From positions 1-53,049 of the IMG/VR virus record IMGVR_UViG_3300007972_000001: a stretch of 53,049 nucleotides of DNA; one strand, 5' to 3'. The position numbers and the translations under genes were made by a program. This DNA comes from a virus (taxonomy: Duplodnaviria; Caudoviricetes). Below are positions 1 to 8,214 of this stretch, piece by piece. Each line of letters opens with the position of its first letter. Positions within the stretch are counted from its first letter, which is position 1. Under the pieces are notes generated by a model that saw nothing but the letters and a program-made list of their open reading frames with translations, was not told where the DNA came from and ran no database searches.

Positions 1-363
1 ATGAAGGAGCTTCCGCCAGAAGGGCTTGATGTGAATTATTATGCAGGTTTTTTGGATGGTTGGAGAATTGCAGATGGCTGCGGTGAAAGATTAGACAGTC
101 AAAATGCAAAAGCTTTAGATTGGGCAGAAAAATACGCACCCATGTGCGGCTTAGTAGTAACAGGTAGGTCACAGTCTAAAATTATGGATACAAATATAGG
201 AAGGCAGAGTGCGCCTTTAGGCTGTGTTTACCTAAGGCCTTCAAGTGAGGTTACCTGGAAAGTAACAAAAATTGAACCTATGAAAGGACTACATCCGGTT
301 TATTGTGCCGTCGTTCCAAAAATAAAAGCCTTCACCCTTTCGGGTGGAATCTACACAGGTAAC
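1..363 (+). mobile_element. Intein in DnaB, C-terminal part with LAGLIDADG-type motif
   Basis: YYAGFLDGWRIADG (LAGLIDADG-like), block F VYCAVVP, block G FTLSGGIYTGN followed by +1 Cys at 364-366. Confidence 0.8.
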
Positions 364-732
364 TGCGTGGTTGTTTTGCTGGCTCAGTTGAGCGACGAAG
401 GTATCATTCGCTACTCGAAGGCTTTGAAAGAACACTCCAGTAATATGTGGAGTTGGATATACAACTCCGAGGCACGAGAGAGTCATCTAATCAACATTCG
501 TCAGGACAAAGCTCGAAATCAGAAATCCTTTGATTTTGTCCTACAAGAGAATTTTGAGTGCATGAGGATTGGCGACTTTGAAGGTGAAGAACTACCAAGT
601 AGCTCTCAGCCTAAAAAGAAAAAAGCAACTTGGGGCAAGAAGCCTGCCAGTAAAAGGGACAAAGCCGAGAATGAACCCGACAACAAGGTGAAAAAGGCCA
701 AGGTCAAACGTGATGACTACTACGAATTGTGA
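1..732 (+). CDS. dnaB: DnaB-like replicative helicase, C-terminal part, interrupted by an intein (5'-partial)
   Basis: After the intein end (TGN|C) the sequence CVVVLLAQLSDEGIIRYSKALKEHSSNMW...IRQDKARN matches DnaB H3/H4 motifs and the K-x-R arginine finger; Lys-rich C-terminal tail. The true start lies upstream of the window. Confidence 0.8.
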   Translation: MKELPPEGLDVNYYAGFLDGWRIADGCGERLDSQNAKALDWAEKYAPMCGLVVTGRSQSKIMDTNIGRQSAPLGCVYLRPSSEVTWKVTKIEPMKGLHPVYCAVVPKIKAFTLSGGIYTGNCVVVLLAQLSDEGIIRYSKALKEHSSNMWSWIYNSEARESHLINIRQDKARNQKSFDFVLQENFECMRIGDFEGEELPSSSQPKKKKATWGKKPASKRDKAENEPDNKVKKAKVKRDDYYEL

Positions 733-748
733 CCTGGGGAGATACGGC

Positions 749-1810
749 GTGATTGAACATCGTGGGAAAAAGGGTTGCTTAGTTGGTGGAAGCCTAATAG
801 CTACTCGATTTGGGTTCCGTATGCTGTCGGAATTATGCCCACGATCAGAAGGAACTGAAACGCCTAACGACCTTCAAGTGTATTCTCCTGTTGGCCTTGT
901 GCCAGTATCAGCAGTTCATAACACAGGTATACAACCAACGGTTCAAGTGACAACCGATATTGGCATTGTTCTAACTTGCACCCTAGATCACGGTTGGTTG
1001 GCCGATAGAGAAGGGCAGATGGGTTGGATTGAAGCCAAAGACTTGGCTTATGGTGAAGAGCTGGCTGTTGAATTGGGGGACTGGCCTCGGCACGATTCTC
1101 GCATCTTTAACGTCCCACAGAACATCGCCAACAATTACGTCAGAGAAACGGTTATATCCTCGTCAGAACTTGGTATGGATATCGATGATGACCTCCGTTT
1201 CGCCTTGCTAGGTTTAGCGTCGTTCGCCTTTCAAAATGGCTCAGGTCTAGTGCTAAAAGGTAACTCAAAAGCTTACAAAGAATGGTCTGACGTGTTTGCC
1301 ATGAAGATGCTGCGAAACAGTCGGACTAATCAATATGCCCGAAATATTTCGGGCAGTTCCGAAGTCTCGCTACCTCGTGAGTTTTCTAGGTTCTTTGTCG
1401 AAAAGATCGTAGGTAGAGGGGAGAACTCTCTTCATGCGTTGCTGTGCCAGAGTACCAGACGATCAGCCTTGGCCTGGTTAGCAGCTCTGATTAGACTTGG
1501 TTATTTAGAATTGAAACATTCGGATTGTAAAGTTCAAACTCAGGCTTTTCCTGTGCCTGTAGCGCGTATTTTGCACTTGTTGTTTCTCAGACTAGGTGTA
1601 AGAGCCGAATTAGCCATTAGCTTGGGCACAGCCAGTGTGGTTTTACCTACGTCTGTTCTGAATACCAATCTCGACAAGCGAGCTAGCCCGATAGAGAAGA
1701 CGATGGTAATCGGTGTGAGAAAAGGTGAGCCACAAATGGTCTTTGATTTGACTGTTCCCAATTCTCACAGTTTCTCTGCCTGTGGTTTAGTATCTAGGAA
1801 TAGCCTATGA
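749..1810 (+). CDS. Stand-alone intein (Hint plus degenerate LAGLIDADG) with only 9-aa and 2-aa exteins
   Basis: GGGGAG at 736-741 then in-frame GTG at 749; MIEHRGKKG|CLVGGSLI (block A, Cys at 776), TCTLDH (block B), VFDLTV (block F), GLVSRN|SL-stop (block G). Stop overlaps the next ATG (ATGA). Confidence 0.85.
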   Translation: MIEHRGKKGCLVGGSLIATRFGFRMLSELCPRSEGTETPNDLQVYSPVGLVPVSAVHNTGIQPTVQVTTDIGIVLTCTLDHGWLADREGQMGWIEAKDLAYGEELAVELGDWPRHDSRIFNVPQNIANNYVRETVISSSELGMDIDDDLRFALLGLASFAFQNGSGLVLKGNSKAYKEWSDVFAMKMLRNSRTNQYARNISGSSEVSLPREFSRFFVEKIVGRGENSLHALLCQSTRRSALAWLAALIRLGYLELKHSDCKVQTQAFPVPVARILHLLFLRLGVRAELAISLGTASVVLPTSVLNTNLDKRASPIEKTMVIGVRKGEPQMVFDLTVPNSHSFSACGLVSRNSL

Positions 1811-2061
1811 CAAATGGTGTGCTAACTCACGCAGAGCGCGCAGTTTTATCTGTGGTTAACCAACGCAGTTCCTCAATTGTTGGCAACAATTGCCATCAAG
1901 AAAAGTTTAACACTCGGGTAGTAGCTTCGCTCGCTATTCGTGGGTTGGTTCGACGCTTGGATAAAGTAGATATACTCACAATGACAGAGCTTGGTAAGCA
2001 AGTTCTCGGTGCAGCAAAATACAATGTCTTGTTAGGGGTATACACGTATGAGGTATTATAA
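1807..2061 (+). CDS. Small hypothetical protein, winged-helix-like
   Basis: ATGA-coupled ORF; LAIRGLV...LTMTELGKQVL resembles the end of a wHTH wing. Confidence 0.5.
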   Translation: MTNGVLTHAERAVLSVVNQRSSSIVGNNCHQEKFNTRVVASLAIRGLVRRLDKVDILTMTELGKQVLGAAKYNVLLGVYTYEVL

Positions 2062-2617
2062 CCCTGATGGGAGTCGAAATATGCTGACGCCTGGATACCC
2101 AAGTCGTCAGCGACCAGTTATTTTGCAGAAAGCACGAGCGGTTTCTAACCTGTCTGCAAAAGCCTTAGAAAAGCTACGAAAGAAAGCTCGTAGGGAAGAA
2201 CGTCGTATTAGAAGATGGTTGGATCAAGAGAAGATTGAAATAGATGCGGACCATTATTTGGATCTGCATGCTTCTGTGTCTGAATCGACGATGGTGAATC
2301 TCCTAAACGTAGCGTTGAGGAGTAACGCCGTCGTTGATGCTGTTCGTAAGGCAAATATTGCCCTATCTGAAAATTTGAACATGGATGACCTAAGCATTGA
2401 GTCTCCAGAAATTGTTAGGTTTACGACACTAGCTGCCCGTTTTGAGATGATGAGGGTAGTGCTAGAAAACATTAGTATTCCAGAACACCATAGAGCGCAG
2501 ATGCTTTCTAGGTACGTAGAGAGGCTGATACCCACTTCACAATTCGCGGCTCGTAAATCACCTGATCCCTTCGCTCAGGTACAAGAACAACTCAACCGGC
2601 TCGGATTGAACAAATGA
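2048..2617 (+). CDS. Hypothetical helical protein, candidate terminase small subunit
   Basis: 189 aa, basic N-terminus, ATGA-coupled to terL; assignment by position only. Confidence 0.4.
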   Translation: MRYYNPDGSRNMLTPGYPSRQRPVILQKARAVSNLSAKALEKLRKKARREERRIRRWLDQEKIEIDADHYLDLHASVSESTMVNLLNVALRSNAVVDAVRKANIALSENLNMDDLSIESPEIVRFTTLAARFEMMRVVLENISIPEHHRAQMLSRYVERLIPTSQFAARKSPDPFAQVQEQLNRLGLNK

Positions 2618-5600
2618 AATACAGAGCTAAACGCGCCACTGTCCTAGAAAACTGCTTGTCCTGCACCAAGTATTCTAGGTGCAAGTATGAAGCAAAGAAG
2701 TGGAATTTTTTGTGCCACAGGTTCCGTTCTGTTGAAGATGACCCCACACCAACGGTGACTGAACCAGAAGTTACACTCCCCAAGAAGAAGGTCAAAACAA
2801 AAGGGCTTAAAACCCTTAGAGTGCAGACTACAGATGAAGTTGACCTAGAGGCTACCGATAAAAGTGGTAAGGACTTTAGGAGGTATCTCAAGGAGCTATC
2901 AGAAAGCGATGGTGTAATCCTTGATGATCCTAGAGTAGATGACCGTGATTTTAAGCAAGCACCAAACTTTTTAGAGTGGTGTACCGGCAAGGAGTTTCTC
3001 AATACTGAACCTTTTGCTAAGCAGCTCCAACTTGGCATACAGTTCCATGCAGAGTGGTGCCCAAAGTGCTCGGACTCTGATTATGTAACAGATATACCTA
3101 TAGATGCGACGGTCGATGAAATGTTGGAGAGAATCCAACTGATGAACTACGGCAAGTGCCCTCGTTGTAAGGGAACCAGAGCCGAGTTCTTCACTGAGGG
3201 CGATCTGCCTATGTTTCAGGACATGATCGCCGTTATCGGACAGCGCGGTGGAAAGTGCGTTTCTGGAGACACTTGGGTGTTGACAGATAATGGCTTACAA
3301 CGTATGCGGCAGGTTGTAGATCAACAGACAACCACTGTTGCCAGCAATGACGGTTCTGTTCTCGACGTAACCAATTGGTGGAGCAAAGGCCAAAAACCTG
3401 TTATTGACTTGACGACTGAGATAGGTCAGATGATCACGCTGACTGGCTCTCATCCGATCTATACCTCTGTTGGGGATAAGAAGGCTAAGGATTGCATCGG
3501 GCGATACGTTCCTTTGTATGCAGGGCAAAACAAATTTCCTTCCTTTAAGCGTCGTCACAAGCTGCATCTAGACGGTGCAATTATGGCCGACAGGATCACG
3601 CAAGGTTTCGTTGAGGAAAACTTGCACAGTGACGGTCGTAAGAACCCAATGCGTGTTGGGTTATCCGATCTCATAATGACGATGGACAGGGACTTTTGGT
3701 TGAAATTCTTACGCCAAGGGTTCTTTTCTCGTTACACTCACGGTCCTGTGCTAGTTTGGCAGTTACCTTTTGCAGGGTTTGCCCGAGACATTCAAACTGT
3801 TCTCTTAAACCTCGGTGTCTTCTCTCGTATCATTAAAAAGACCATTACTGTCGAAGGTAGGATGGCTCTACGGCTGGCTAGACTATGTGGAGCTCTATCT
3901 CTCGTAAATGTTTGGATGAGTCAGACCGTCTTTAAGGATTATCAGGCCTGGTACGATACCTTTGGTGCTGGCCCTAGAAAGATTATTGAGACAAGCCTGC
4001 AAGCCATTTTAGTGGATGTCGAGCCTCATATTCCAGACCTACCCAACTCGACTCATCGCTTCATGCGAGATAGTATGGGTAACTATATCGAGCGTGTTAG
4101 GAATAGCGACATTTCTCGTTGGGAGCTGTCCTTTGTTATCCGAAAGTATATCGAGCCGCTTCGCTTCTATCTAAATCCCTTAGGGAAAATGGCGATAGAT
4201 CGCCTGTATCAGATCATAGATCCAGAGGTTGCTTGGGTTAAAGTGACCGGCGCGCGAAGTGGTCGTATGGTAGACGTTTATGATATTGAGGTGCCGCAGA
4301 CAAGACACTTCCTTGCTAATGGGTTGTGGGTTCATAACAGCGTCTCTCTTGGTCATAACATCACTTACACTGCTCACAAGTTTATCAAGCTCGGTAATCC
4401 TAGCAAATACTTTGGCTTGCCACCTACAATCTTGCATGGAAATGTAGTTGCTACTACTCACGCGCAGGCTAAGGAATCTGTGTGGGACCCAATGCTAGAG
4501 TTGATGGACGAAAGCCCTTGGTTCAGCAACTACCACGAGTTCTTGAAAGATCGCGGCGAGACTATTGGTGAGGAGCTATTCCGCATCAAGGACACATTTG
4601 CCTACTATCGGCATCGTGGCTTACAGATGGGCCCCAGCTCGCCTAATAAAAGGAACCTTCGCGGTAGGACTCGGTTCTGGGCAGCCATCGATGAGCTTGG
4701 CTGGTTCGGTGGTGATGAAGGTGCTGTCAAAACAAACGGTTCGGAAGTATATAAGGCCCTCGCTCGAAGCTTGCAGACTTTAAGGTCTCGTTCTCGTGCG
4801 CTCATACAGCAGGGCGTATATGACTTTCCGGTTGCAGGTATGTACTGTATCTCTAGCCCTAGCGACATTAATGATCCTATCATGACGCTCTATCGAGACG
4901 CCAGTAAGGTCAAGACAATGTATGCGGTGAACTACCCAACATGGGAGTTCAACCCAATGATTACTAGAGAGGACTTGTCCAGAGAGTTTGAGACGGATTT
5001 TGCTGCTGCCATGCGAGACTTTGGTGCTAGACCGCCAATGTCCACATTGCCGTTCGTGAGCAAGTACTCAGACTTTAAGGGTGTATTCAACCGGAACATA
5101 ACAAATGCCGCCGCGATCAAGCAGTTGAAGGTGATCAGCAAGGGCGGTCGCAAGATGACTGGTGCTTCTATCGACTTTATATGGCATGACGCCTCTATTG
5201 GAAAGTTGATGACGCTTGATCCAGGTTCTGTGAACAACTCCTTTGCTCTAACTGTGAGCCACATTGATCCAGAGTTGGGCATAGTCTTTGACCTACTGGC
5301 TGAGATTATCCCGCTCAAGCGCCGTGAAATCAACTTCCCTCAAATCGTCAAGCACGTTCTTGAACCCATCATTGAGAAGATGGGTATCAGAGTTATCGCT
5401 TCTGATAGGTGGCAGCACAAGCTTCTACTGCAAGGGCTTGAGGAAAAGTACGGTATTCCATATATCGAGTACAAGTGCAAGTACTCGGACTTCCTAGATT
5501 GGCGCGACGCCACTAGAGAGGAACAGTATAGCATGCCTGCTCCAGAAATGAAGCGGGATGATATTCTGGCGGTCAATAGTTCCAACTACCGTAACGCCTT

Positions 5601-5934
5601 TATGGGCAAGCCTATCTCCCACTTGATCTATCAAGCTTTGACTGTCCAAGACGTTCCCGGTAAGACGGTCGAAAAAGGAACAGACACTACCGATGACGTG
5701 TTCCGTGCTATGGTGGTTGCACACGCTCTACTCAACGAACCCGAAGTAGCAGAGTTAGTTCAAGGTGAGTTGAGGAATGGTAACTACGGTATCGGTGCAG
5801 TGGCAGGTATGTCAGGCGGCTATGGTGGCAGTTCTGTAAAAGGCCATAAGAGCGTCAATATCCCAATTGCCATTGGTGGGTCAGGCGCTCAATCTATACA
5901 GGGTAGCCGTTTAGGGGTATTAGGTGGAAAATGA
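2614..5934 (+). CDS. terL: Terminase large subunit with intein and Cys-rich N-terminal extension
   Basis: Walker A IGQRGGK|S (after splicing), LRGRT..AAIDELGW Walker B, CISSP motif III, RNase H-like nuclease LMTLDPG...SDRWQ...TDDVFRA; CxxC pairs in the N-terminus. Confidence 0.92.
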   Translation: MKYRAKRATVLENCLSCTKYSRCKYEAKKWNFLCHRFRSVEDDPTPTVTEPEVTLPKKKVKTKGLKTLRVQTTDEVDLEATDKSGKDFRRYLKELSESDGVILDDPRVDDRDFKQAPNFLEWCTGKEFLNTEPFAKQLQLGIQFHAEWCPKCSDSDYVTDIPIDATVDEMLERIQLMNYGKCPRCKGTRAEFFTEGDLPMFQDMIAVIGQRGGKCVSGDTWVLTDNGLQRMRQVVDQQTTTVASNDGSVLDVTNWWSKGQKPVIDLTTEIGQMITLTGSHPIYTSVGDKKAKDCIGRYVPLYAGQNKFPSFKRRHKLHLDGAIMADRITQGFVEENLHSDGRKNPMRVGLSDLIMTMDRDFWLKFLRQGFFSRYTHGPVLVWQLPFAGFARDIQTVLLNLGVFSRIIKKTITVEGRMALRLARLCGALSLVNVWMSQTVFKDYQAWYDTFGAGPRKIIETSLQAILVDVEPHIPDLPNSTHRFMRDSMGNYIERVRNSDISRWELSFVIRKYIEPLRFYLNPLGKMAIDRLYQIIDPEVAWVKVTGARSGRMVDVYDIEVPQTRHFLANGLWVHNSVSLGHNITYTAHKFIKLGNPSKYFGLPPTILHGNVVATTHAQAKESVWDPMLELMDESPWFSNYHEFLKDRGETIGEELFRIKDTFAYYRHRGLQMGPSSPNKRNLRGRTRFWAAIDELGWFGGDEGAVKTNGSEVYKALARSLQTLRSRSRALIQQGVYDFPVAGMYCISSPSDINDPIMTLYRDASKVKTMYAVNYPTWEFNPMITREDLSREFETDFAAAMRDFGARPPMSTLPFVSKYSDFKGVFNRNITNAAAIKQLKVISKGGRKMTGASIDFIWHDASIGKLMTLDPGSVNNSFALTVSHIDPELGIVFDLLAEIIPLKRREINFPQIVKHVLEPIIEKMGIRVIASDRWQHKLLLQGLEEKYGIPYIEYKCKYSDFLDWRDATREEQYSMPAPEMKRDDILAVNSSNYRNAFMGKPISHLIYQALTVQDVPGKTVEKGTDTTDDVFRAMVVAHALLNEPEVAELVQGELRNGNYGIGAVAGMSGGYGGSSVKGHKSVNIPIAIGGSGAQSIQGSRLGVLGGK
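3256..4338 (+). mobile_element. Intein (361 aa) inserted in the terminase Walker A motif
   Basis: GGK|CVSGDTWV (block A), LTGSH (block B), VYDIEV (block F), FLANGLWVHN|S (block G); central region has LAGLIDADG-like remnants (KFLRQGFF, ARDIQTVLLNLGVFSRI). Confidence 0.93.
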
Positions 5935-6974
5935 GTCATACCGAAGCAATAGCCGTTGGCGATCTTCATTTGGAAAAACTGTTCAAGTGGTTTGATCCAG
6001 AGCTAGCCTTAGCTTATACCTTTTCCGCTTTGGAAGCAGCCTACAAGTACGCAGTTGAGAACTCTGTCCAATTCGTGATACTATTGGGTGATATATTCGA
6101 CACAGCTACTCCAGAACAGCGGACTGTTGATAGGTTCAACCAGTTTTTGGCGACACACAATAAGGTAACCTGGTTGATTATTCGTGGCAATCATGATATC
6201 CATGACACGCACACGTCCAGCCTCATTATCTTGAAGGGCATAGATCGCCTGAATTTGATGCCTCATGTTCGAGTGTTTCTTTCACCTGAGCTATTAGACT
6301 TGGATGGCATCAAATTTCTAATGATGCCTTACCCATATCGAAAGATTGATAAGTGGTTAAAGCCCGATGAGTTTGCTGTCGTGTGCCCGCACTTAGAGTT
6401 TCGTGGAGCTCAGACCGACAATGGTTTCATCTCTAAAGATGGGGCTAAGCTGCCAAAGGGTTGTCAGATTTGGGTGAGCGGGCATCTACACACGAAGCAA
6501 GTAGTAGGTGAAAGATTATTCTACCCTGGAACTATGCTTCAACTGAATATGGTAGAAAAGCCTGAGAAATTCTTCCTACACATGACAATTGATGGTGAAA
6601 AGTTCACGCCAAAGTTTGTCCCTTACAAGACGCCATTTCAACTGTTCAATCTGGTCATTGCTACCGAGGCTGATCTGGAGAGAGTTGACGCTAGAAACCC
6701 AAAGCACCGCTATCGCCTTGTGGTGAAGAACGGCGTCAAAGTACCCTTAAAGGTTAGAAATTCTCCCTATGTTGTCATGCACGGTTATCAAAATCGTGAG
6801 GAGAAAAAGTCAGTTATTAAGGGAATGCTTCACCTAAGTAAGCAAGAACATAAGCAATTCGATGTGACCTATGGACTGAAAACCTTCCTCAAGAGCAAGG
6901 GTCACGATGCAAGTGATGTAAAAGAAGCAGTGAGCTTCGCTAGGTCACTTGCCAAATCTATTGGAGTGAGATGA
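5931..6974 (+). CDS. Mre11/SbcD/gp47-like metallophosphoesterase nuclease
   Basis: Motifs GDLH, LLGDIFD, RGNHD, PHLE, SGHLH, YPGT. Confidence 0.88.
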   Translation: MSHTEAIAVGDLHLEKLFKWFDPELALAYTFSALEAAYKYAVENSVQFVILLGDIFDTATPEQRTVDRFNQFLATHNKVTWLIIRGNHDIHDTHTSSLIILKGIDRLNLMPHVRVFLSPELLDLDGIKFLMMPYPYRKIDKWLKPDEFAVVCPHLEFRGAQTDNGFISKDGAKLPKGCQIWVSGHLHTKQVVGERLFYPGTMLQLNMVEKPEKFFLHMTIDGEKFTPKFVPYKTPFQLFNLVIATEADLERVDARNPKHRYRLVVKNGVKVPLKVRNSPYVVMHGYQNREEKKSVIKGMLHLSKQEHKQFDVTYGLKTFLKSKGHDASDVKEAVSFARSLAKSIGVR

Positions 6975-7207
6975 TAATGGCTAGACGTTCTTTACCTAAG
7001 AAACAGGTCGTTGCTCAGCTTCCATCAGAGCTAACAGATGAGCAAGTCAAAGCCGCTGTCTACGCCATGCACGACACCGTAAGCAGCACCCCATTCGATG
7101 AGTATTACAAGGGGTATGCGGAGCTTCGCCTTTCTGAGTATGGGGCCAGGTTCCGTGCTGGCTATAAAAGAATTGTGGAGATGGTCCTAGGCCATGATGA
7201 AAAATGA
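6971..7207 (+). CDS. Hypothetical protein
   Basis: ATGA-coupled at both ends within the operon. Confidence 0.6.
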   Translation: MIMARRSLPKKQVVAQLPSELTDEQVKAAVYAMHDTVSSTPFDEYYKGYAELRLSEYGARFRAGYKRIVEMVLGHDEK

Positions 7208-8214
7208 GGCTCGAAGAGTTTGTGCAGCAGGAGCTGCGAAAGCTGCCGCCTGATAGAAGCATTCGTTGGGATACCGACCGTGCGTGGATACGTTGTCCAG
7301 TTCACAATAACGGTAACGAGCGCACTGGTTCTATGCGAATCATGCTCAAGCGAGAAAATACTCCTAAAGGCGTAGTGTATCCTGGTCATATCTATTGCTG
7401 GGGTTGTGGAAAAACCCACCCTTGGGACGTTCTTGTTGAGCGTTACAAGTTGAAGAAAATAAAGCGGAGTCAGATGTACAATGACTCCGCTTATGAGGTA
7501 TTTAGCCCAGAAGATCGAGCAGCTATGCTCGGTGAAGCTCAAACAGAGCAACTCCCAGTTGATGCTGCACCTTGGCCGGTCCACATGAATTGGCGCAATA
7601 TCAATGGGCAAACGACGCACGATGTTGGTGGACTTATTTATTACGATTACGGGATTAAGCAGACACGTTGCATACTGCCAGTCAATATCCATGAAGAGAT
7701 GGTAGGCTTCGTCAAGTGTAACCTGATGCCGGTCAAAAAGGGTCGAAACTATTTCAACTCGACTGGTTCATGGTCTAGAACACAGGCCTTGTTTCCCTAC
7801 GATCACGTCAAGGAGATGCTAGATAAGAAGAGGCCTCGGATTATCTACCTCGTCGAAGGGCCAAGAGACGCACTCAATCAAGTGCAATTGGGCAAAGCCT
7901 GTCTAGCCATCCTTGGAGCAAGAAATTGGACTGATGAGAAGCGGGAGCTAGTACTTGACCTTGATCCTGATCTAGTAGTCGTTATGCTTGACCCTGACAA
8001 AGTGGGTCAATTGGGTGCTGCTAAGATTGTTAAGAGCCTCAAGCGATCGGTGCCAATCGTCAATTTCAAGTTTCCTTTGAACCCTGATGGCTCGAAGAAG
8101 ATGGATGCTTCTGATCTGACGAAAAAACAGTCCAACGGAATACACCGACGCTATCTAGATAGGCTAAAGCAAGGCGAGATAGGTAGTAAGGCCAAGAAGA
8201 GGATTGCAGCATGA
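7204..8214 (+). CDS. DNA primase (zinc-binding plus TOPRIM domains)
   Basis: CPVH...YCWGCG zinc finger; YLVEGPRDAL and MLDPD TOPRIM motifs; C-terminal KMDASD. Confidence 0.88.
   Translation: MRLEEFVQQELRKLPPDRSIRWDTDRAWIRCPVHNNGNERTGSMRIMLKRENTPKGVVYPGHIYCWGCGKTHPWDVLVERYKLKKIKRSQMYNDSAYEVFSPEDRAAMLGEAQTEQLPVDAAPWPVHMNWRNINGQTTHDVGGLIYYDYGIKQTRCILPVNIHEEMVGFVKCNLMPVKKGRNYFNSTGSWSRTQALFPYDHVKEMLDKKRPRIIYLVEGPRDALNQVQLGKACLAILGARNWTDEKRELVLDLDPDLVVVMLDPDKVGQLGAAKIVKSLKRSVPIVNFKFPLNPDGSKKMDASDLTKKQSNGIHRRYLDRLKQGEIGSKAKKRIAA

Follow-up and report, generated by a model that had tools for sequence, protein, structure and literature searches.

Inteins are defined by their residence in host proteins, and their spread to new places is inferred mostly from phylogenies. 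In the homing-cycle model of Goddard and Burt, the nuclease of an intein decays, whereas its splicing domain, indispensable to the host protein, is maintained. Intein genes without the flanking halves of a host protein (exteins) are described, in the literature searched, only for HO/WHO of yeast; the supplements of these papers might list others. In the accessible part of one account, HO and WHO are independently expressed, extein-less, intein-derived genes with Hint-like and LAGLIDADG regions, which encode active nucleases with a zinc finger at the C-terminus and without intein motif G, and the WHO elements adjoin, rather than interrupt, their related gene (PMC7282813). Here we describe an open reading frame (ORF) at positions 749-1810 of the IMG/VR record IMGVR_UViG_3300007972_000001 that consists almost entirely of an intein. 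The window, i.e. the whole stretch of DNA analysed, is this entire record, 53,049 bases of linear sequence estimated to be 26% complete. On balance, and with little confidence to spare, we read the ORF as an extein-less copy, in an ectopic place, of an intein from the P-loop of a terminase; its nuclease would be dead, and the phage would carry it as a passenger.

A second precedent comes from inteins of actinophages. As set out in the available text of a preprint, inteins of the terminase P-loop jump to Cas4 via sequence shared between the two nucleotide-binding sites, which amounts to 10 bases on the 5' side and 2 bases on the 3' side (bioRxiv 10.1101/2025.01.02.630785). That text also describes non-canonical endonuclease arrangements, including antisense or other-frame genes; extein-less inteins are not among the cases it presents. 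Yet another arrangement, the 'fractured genes', consists of split inteins with a free-standing endonuclease gene between the halves, according to the accessible part of its description (PMC2677866). The ORF considered here lies in the short spacer between a dnaB helicase gene and a small gene, ORF84, upstream of terL, which encodes the large terminase subunit (TerL) and has an intein of its own in the P-loop.

Anatomy and expression signals

Bases 776-1801 encode an intein of 342 amino acids with Hint and LAGLIDADG-type regions. No stop interrupts the reading frame between 692 and the TGA at 1808-1810; taken from the GTG at 749, it specifies a product of 353 residues (the genes and domains placed in this text between positions 1 and 5934 are all on the plus strand). 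What surrounds the intein is an N-terminal stub of 9 codons, (M/V)IEHRGKKG (749-775), and a C-terminal one made up of Ser+1 (1802-1804), Leu and the TGA (1802-1810). There are no host-protein halves around it, the flanks measuring 9 (at most 22) and 2 residues. As no exteins are joined, the ORF is by definition derived from an intein without being one in functional terms. A previous sequence-only reading had listed the motifs of this intein (first Cys, TxxH, block F Asp, terminal Asn and Ser+1) and its minute flanks; both descriptions are borne out, with the length of the N-flank depending on the start codon.

The candidate starts are GTG 710, ATG 713 and GTG 749, the first two extending the N-flank to up to 22 residues. 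A Shine-Dalgarno (SD)-like GGGGAG (736-741), read from the sequence, stands 7 nucleotides (nt) upstream of GTG 749, at positions -13 to -8. By our own count an SD-like tetramer starting at -14 to -6 precedes 31 of the 49 other ORFs of the window, and GGGGAG is therefore this phage's normal signal. The public gene calls (P0001 and the Atlas record) start the protein at ATG 821, which gives 329 residues and would remove Cys1; this residue counts as present only if translation begins upstream of 776. We infer that translation starts at GTG 749, 16 nt beyond the dnaB stop codon (see below).

At the other end the stop codon, TGA 1808-1810, overlaps the ATG of ORF84 (1807-1809) as ATGA. The putative SD of ORF84 is AGGA (1796-1799), composed of the Arg codon AGG and the initial A of the Asn codon; it lies 7 nt upstream of the ATG, and its position, -11, is the usual one for an SD in this phage. 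The claim that the intein has its own ribosome-binding site and is coupled to the next gene is thus upheld by GGGGAG and by the ATGA overlap. Deleting 749-1806 would put the upstream GGGGAG 7 nt before the ATG of ORF84, which agrees with an insertion that separated an SD from its start codon; a new SD for ORF84 would then have arisen within the last codons of the intein. The coding signal is positive in the intein frame only (0.063 versus -0.64 and -0.69 in the other frames), and both the GC content and the codon signal of the ORF agree with those of the neighbouring genes.

Links to other coding sequence were considered and rejected. The heptamer G-AAA-AAG at 690-696, near the end of dnaB, resembles a -1 slippery site, but a fusion with dnaB by this means would require the opposite shift, the intein frame being +1 from dnaB; no +1 frameshift signal between the two frames is seen on reading the sequence. 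ORF84 does not serve as a shifted C-extein, as a TAG at 1801-1803 closes its frame just upstream of the ATG. Antisense or other-frame endonuclease genes are likewise absent from the interior of the intein, which has only short ORFs (≤73 amino acids).

Six of the seven canonical splicing residues are kept. In the numbering of the 353-residue product, block B is T78-L-D-H81 (980-991), the block F Asp is D333, the terminal Asn is N351 (1799-1801) and Ser+1 is S352; Cys1 is encoded by 776-778. The C-terminus reads S-R-N-S-L (residues 349-353), and the penultimate residue of the intein is Arg350 (1796-1798), not His. This substitution had been noticed earlier and is confirmed by an alignment with 24 inteins and by the structural model. 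The Hint N-lobe with blocks A and B (776-1104) is modelled at a predicted local distance difference test score (pLDDT) of 90-97 and matches an N-block hidden Markov model (HMM) at E 1.8e-30, this HMM having been seeded from the stand-alone sequence itself. The C-lobe with blocks F and G, VFDLTVPNSHSF then CGLVSRN (1685-1801), matches the C-block HMM at E 5e-11; PF14890 scores 12.4 bits on 1721-1801, and BLASTP finds 14/34 with the C-end of the TerL intein.

A comparison set of 290 other, host-embedded inteins was cut from HMMER matches and related loci. Asn ends 289 of these inteins, Ser, Thr or Cys follows as the +1 residue in 288, and the penultimate position holds His in 257, Ser in 25, Lys in 3, Gly in 2, Ala in 2 and Arg in 1. 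Since 33 of the 290 have a residue other than His here, one of them Arg, Arg350 alone does not exclude splicing. Over the whole ORF, PF14890 reaches 29.6 bits, under its cut-off of 35.8. The resident TerL intein exceeds the cut-offs of TIGR01445 (36.8 bits; cut-off 24.5) and TIGR01443 (25 bits; cut-off 15.6), whereas the stand-alone one scores 13.2 and 12.3 bits, respectively. The lower motif scores and the penultimate Arg are signs of splicing constraint relaxed relative to the resident TerL intein. The splicing chemistry is formally retained, and self-splicing or end-cleavage could release the free intein and an 11-residue peptide. As there are no exteins to rejoin, splicing would serve no purpose.

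The AlphaFold2 model, built with the alignment of 24 host-embedded inteins, has a mean pLDDT of 72 and a predicted template modelling score (pTM) of 0.72, with the Hint lobes above 90. Its top matches in the PDB, found with Foldseek, are endonuclease-bearing inteins, 7qst (PhoVMA, E 3e-11) and 7qsu (TliVMA, TMq 0.64); PI-PfuI and PI-SceI are among the further ones. Alignment, model and Foldseek concur on a degenerate LAGLIDADG-type endonuclease domain at 1103-1686. Both LAGLIDADG helices are recognisable (residues 149-162 and 237-249), motif 1 being LRFALLGLASFAFQNGSG (1193-1246) and motif 2 LAWLAALIRLGY (1469-1504). In the alignment as well as in the model, the positions of the catalytic acids are occupied by Asn163 and Leu251, in agreement with the earlier remark that the motifs lack acidic residues. 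The second half of the nuclease shows the order helix-strand-strand-helix-strand-strand at pLDDT 75-88, the first half models poorly (pLDDT 32-52), and a profile scan gives no PF14528 (LAGLIDADG_3) match in the ORF. Loss of the LAGLIDADG catalytic acids abolishes cleavage in this enzyme family. With both acids replaced, the nuclease is most likely dead, and the product of the ORF unable to cut DNA or to drive homing. The nuclease of the resident TerL intein also seems degenerate, with a LAGLIDADG_3 score of 14.2 bits, under the cut-off, and a motif-2 region, FWLKFLRQGFFSRYTHG, without the usual acids.

The stub, the terminase P-loop and related loci

The terL gene occupies 2614-5934 (phrog_17415, E 4.2e-162). 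Its resident intein, at 3256-4338, is inserted at VIGQRGGK|C...HN|SV (PF14890 36.4 bits; both TIGR models over cut-off). The stand-alone ORF carries a trace of this site. Bases 749-772 of the stub are identical to terL 3232-3255 at 16 of 24 positions, a score that is tied best among the approximately 106,000 positions on both strands of the window, with one other site scoring equally. The terL segment consists of the 24 bases directly before the Cys codon of the resident intein, and the stub is in register with the insertion point. Half of the eight mismatches lie at third codon positions and are silent (in the V, I, R and G codons), as expected for former terL coding sequence. At the protein level, VIEHRGKK against VIGQRGGK is one of the eight top-scoring pairings among 73,890 stop-free 8-mers, the self-match counted, and BLASTP alignments with TerL cover the N-flank plus block A (E 3e-5) and the C-ends (E 0.001). 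On the 3' side, similarity to terL ends after the Ser+1 codon. The likeness of the stub to the TerL P-loop, on which the sequence-only reading had remarked, is thus beyond chance. The second 16/24 match, at 2205 in ORF189 (21/33 over 2196-2228, with upstream bases), falls in a Lys/Arg/Glu-rich stretch and was judged probably compositional.

The resemblance of the stub to the TerL Walker A sequence would be better read as ancestry, or as the relic of a homing site, than as function. Neither the stub nor the spliced 11-mer contains the GK[ST] signature, which leaves Walker A mimicry unsupported and removes the ground for the proposal that the gene generates a P-loop mimic peptide. Nothing supports a Hint-based protein ligase, another role suggested at the same time, or a sink for endonucleases that target terL, which would offer no cleavable target, as an intein already fills the site. 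Of the functional ideas put forward, only DNA binding by a nuclease-dead protein has some plausibility.

Relatives of the ORF are distant. An exhaustive HMMER search of 1.84 billion representative proteins yielded 157 at E ≤ 0.001 and three at 1e-10, one of the three being the ORF itself; the best foreign match has an E value of 1.3e-14 and 27% identity. Among the 150 matches listed, most of the best stretches lie on the N-terminal Hint block, within long proteins of many kinds. In the set of 290 inteins the best match is 37% over 100 residues, and the 24 aligned inteins, TerL P-loop inteins among them, are only 15-22% identical to the stand-alone one. Searches of phage records matched only three Staphylococcus-phage helicase inteins, covering 31% of the query, and no relative of the ORF was found in viral contigs or metagenome contigs. 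A degenerate DNA pattern (stub plus Cys) had 0 matches in viral contigs, a search for proteins of near length returned the ORF only, and a profile search only the ORF and two longer proteins.

A tree of 92 splicing domains, built on 145 columns, groups the resident TerL intein with the TerL P-loop inteins at a Shimodaira-Hasegawa-like approximate likelihood ratio (SH-aLRT) of 91. The stand-alone copy falls outside that clade, in a neighbouring group whose branching is not resolved and whose support is weak. Forcing it into the TerL P-loop clade gives a p value of 0.49 in the approximately unbiased (AU) test, with a log-likelihood 0.28 above that of the free tree. The phylogeny against TerL inteins that had been proposed as a check therefore does not recover a placement among them, nor does it reject one. 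The tree is compatible with a terminase-intein origin without proving it.

Eighty related loci were taken from a terminase-family alignment (27-45% identity), and splicing-block HMMs were run over their 4,387 stop-to-stop ORFs, those of the window included. The window's is the only ORF that is almost entirely intein; the other matches fall within long ORFs or on the terminal parts of split terL halves, and no syntenic extein-less intein gene occurs among the 80 loci. The dnaB C-extein, which ends at the TGA at 730-732, finds a DnaB homologue in 46 of the 80 loci, where the gene lies upstream of terL on the same strand in 42 and downstream in 4. The gap between dnaB and terL in these 42 loci has a median of 853 nt (range 422-6,572), as against 1,881 nt in the window, of which the intein ORF makes up 1,062 nt. 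Neither tblastn nor profile searches detect TerL extein traces at 1802-2613 or 600-775 at E < 0.1. The conserved dnaB-terL order and the absence of terminase extein traces together indicate that the ORF was inserted and is not the remainder of a decayed gene. The sequence-only reading had named a full host gene around the intein in relatives as a sign of recent pseudogenisation; in the 42 dnaB-terL loci the rule is an order without a second terminase.

Origin and persistence

A stray terminase intein copy is the most likely identity of this gene, which would make it a rare snapshot of intein movement. Ectopic (mis-)homing or illegitimate recombination would have carried the intein into the short spacer that separates dnaB from ORF84. 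The intein would have brought along, or landed in, about 27 terL-P-loop-like bases on the 5' side, with little beyond the Ser+1 codon on the 3' side. The Val codon of the stub would now act as the GTG start behind a good ribosome-binding site, and the last two codons of the intein, AGG AAT, would supply the ribosome-binding site of ORF84. That such a copy is a passenger is favoured by its orphan status, dead nuclease, weakened motifs and poor first nuclease half, and by its absence from the related loci. Probably it is no tool of the phage but a selfish relic still awaiting decay.

A number of observations weigh against a mere passenger. The 353-codon frame is intact, the SD is well placed, translation is coupled and the coding signal is clear, while a useless 1-kb gene with a dead nuclease should vanish quickly from a phage. 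The stub has at least three replacements and one extra codon within 9 codons; equal drift over the body would give stops, which hints at selection, although this argument fails if the stub was always imperfect, i.e. a pseudo-target site. In the model the Hint lobes exceed pLDDT 90, and 6 of the 7 splicing residues are kept. The terminase origin is challenged too, as the body is not demonstrably closest to TerL inteins and has its best matches in many different host proteins. Moreover, a dead nuclease cannot move itself, so that the move would predate the decay or have used another mechanism. Finally, no relatives were found in the collections searched, and no independent contig reaches across the 3' junction.

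Some of these observations lead to the alternative of a domesticated intein, a Hint and nuclease-dead LAGLIDADG protein kept by selection, which we regard as a good deal less probable. Its most plausible job would be sequence-specific DNA binding, for example to the intein-free terL P-loop of competitors or to a site in its own genome, and the protein would be comparable to LAGLIDADG proteins that lost cleavage and kept binding, and to HO of yeast, where an intein became a cellular gene. The intact frame, the SD at optimal distance, the ATGA coupling, the coding signal confined to the right frame, the well-formed Hint lobes and the confident second LAGLIDADG half all suit such a protein, as does the loss of Walker A from the stub while the body has no stop; yet every one of these features is also expected of a recent insertion. 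HO and WHO show, as far as the accessible part of their description goes, that extein-less intein genes can function (PMC7282813). A lead only is provided by Atlas clusters of 330-456-residue proteins, some of the clusters all viral, part of whose members have LAGLIDADG_3 plus Intein_splicing; these may be gene fragments or further extein-less inteins, and they temper a claim of rarity. Conservation, on the other hand, is left unsupported, as there is no homologue in the collections searched, and the 80 related loci have no such gene. The first half of the DNA-binding saddle is the poorly modelled one, and the splicing motifs score under the curated cut-offs. The more specific proposition of a selected binder that still recognises the terminase P-loop homing site, or some other DNA site, appears unlikely to us. 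If true, the protein could serve to protect or tag DNA against homing endonucleases arriving from outside, or hinder the terL of intein-free competitors, and it would be a bacterial-virus counterpart of HO/WHO and a third way for inteins to persist.

It is doubtful that the gene is an N-terminally truncated relic, translated from ATG 821 into 329 residues devoid of Cys1 and block A and incapable of splicing, with 749-820 untranslated. The stored gene call and the Atlas record do begin at Met 821, and ATG is the usual start codon in this phage, but no SD-like motif precedes ATG 821, whereas GTG 749 has its GGGGAG. In addition, the 24 upstream codons are open, in frame and modelled at pLDDT > 90; they spell a recognisable block A (CLVGGSLIATRFG), and many database inteins align with it from Cys1 onward. 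It is for these reasons that the GTG 749 start is preferred. Decay in situ, whereby a second terminase-like or other P-loop gene lost its exteins and left the intein behind, is improbable. The stub is homologous to the terL P-loop and deletions are common in phages, but the process would have taken two deletions within 27 and 6 bases of the intein ends that spared the start, the SD and the coupled stop. The lack of any TerL extein trace on either side, the 16 nt between the dnaB stop and the start, the overlap of the ORF84 ATG with the stop, and the rule of dnaB-terL without a second terminase in the 42 related loci speak against it as well. In collaborative homing, free-standing endonucleases act for endonuclease-less introns. 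A similar role in trans, the stand-alone copy mobilising the resident terL intein with its degenerate-looking nuclease, would agree with the sub-threshold LAGLIDADG_3 match of the latter and with the relation of both elements to one terL site; it is very improbable considering that the stand-alone copy has neither catalytic acid (Asn163 and Leu251 instead) and no PF14528 match. Hardly credible, finally, is an assembly artefact in which a chimeric join set a foreign intein fragment between dnaB and ORF84. The window is a metagenome assembly of partial completeness, and the 3' junction is inside 1531-2081, a stretch that the short, low-depth independent contigs do not cover. However, a 164-base public-run contig spans 685-848, including the 5' junction, without a difference and another covers 1305-1530 (both may stem from the source sample); GC content and codon signal are like those of the neighbours, and the coincidence of an SD and start on the 5' side with an ATGA overlap on the 3' side is not expected of a chimera.

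Setting in the phage and comparison with known systems

The window encodes a DnaB-like helicase, a large terminase, a Toprim primase-like protein, a calcineurin-like phosphoesterase and a type IB topoisomerase-like protein, together with a tail sheath, tail lysozymes and a tail fibre. These genes mark it as part of a marine phage with a contractile tail. The 564-residue protein encoded at 20166-21860 matches the catalytic core of eukaryotic-type topoisomerase I (PF01028, E 3.4e-18), which is uncommon in phages. Short contigs identical to the window were found in four public marine metagenome runs. Its terminase is at most 40-41% identical to any other terminase in the protein collection, the TerL C-extein reveals no close phage relatives in viral contigs or metagenome contigs, and phage records contain no DNA match for window positions 1-8000.

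The dnaB gene is represented by its 3' part (1-732; phrog_19 DnaB-like helicase, E 6.2e-7), cut by the window edge. It has an intein of its own, ...FTLSGGIYTGN|CVVVLLAQLS, of which residues to about 120 form the C-terminal part, the N-part being beyond the window edge; this junction was read from the translation and was not detected by the C-block HMM. There are thus three intein-type elements within 4.4 kb, in dnaB, in the stand-alone ORF and in terL. Between the last two lie ORF84 (1807-2061), the translationally coupled gene, and ORF189 (2048-2617), directly upstream of terL. Family searches found nothing for either, and neither has a homologue in the 80 related loci. In six of those loci (L018, L032, L033, L034, L053 and L056; at about 7.5-10 kb in locus coordinates), terL is split into two ORFs, about 0.4-1.2 kb apart, the first ending with an intein N-block and the second opening with a C-block. 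In another, a single ORF of 2,036 amino acids (L083:11957-18064) contains three inteins, the second and third of which abut (...GLVVHN|CQIGESLIPT), so that the +1 residue of one is Cys1 of the next.

The ORF looks like a landing outside a host protein, accompanied by a scrap of the terminase nucleotide-binding site. It raises the question of whether an extein-less intein with a dead nuclease persists in a compact phage genome through youth or through an acquired use. Gene callers shorten the ORF and curated models miss it; similar cases may hide in viral metagenomes.

The reference group for comparison is formed by the TerL P-loop inteins, namely the resident one and those of related loci, inserted at GK|S (L042, L083 and L084) or at GQR|SGK (L038, L043, L059 and L079). 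The stand-alone copy shares with them the class 1 organisation Cys1...Asn|Ser, a Hint domain with an inserted LAGLIDADG-type domain and similar Walker A flank codons, and membership of the same clade is compatible with the AU test. Unlike them it has no terminase around it, a penultimate Arg and sub-threshold motifs, and its splicing is not required for the phage to live. The degenerate inteins of the homing cycle resemble it in having decayed nuclease motifs next to a recognisable splicing domain, but they reside in a host protein and this one does not. With the fractured genes it has in common an odd intein-related arrangement in environmental phage-like DNA. The split terL genes of L018, L032, L033/L034, L053 and L056 are comparable to these, whereas the ORF of the window is a contiguous intein without a split host gene flanking it. 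The extein switching of actinophages likewise involves a short similar sequence at the insertion point. There, however, the intein ends up in frame in a functional host protein, and here outside any host protein; a landing with a scrap of the terminase site would accordingly be a concrete intermediate, or a dead end, of the shared-P-loop route. The arrangement of HO/WHO is matched by an extein-less gene with its own SD, start and tiny flanks, its expression being predicted from sequence. Unlike HO/WHO, the phage ORF keeps Cys1 and motif G (Asn and Ser+1), ends 2 residues after motif G, and has neither a zinc finger nor the catalytic acids. The parallel is one of arrangement, with no claim to kinship in sequence, and by this analogy the yeast HO/WHO genes appear to be the closest known parallels of the stand-alone phage intein.

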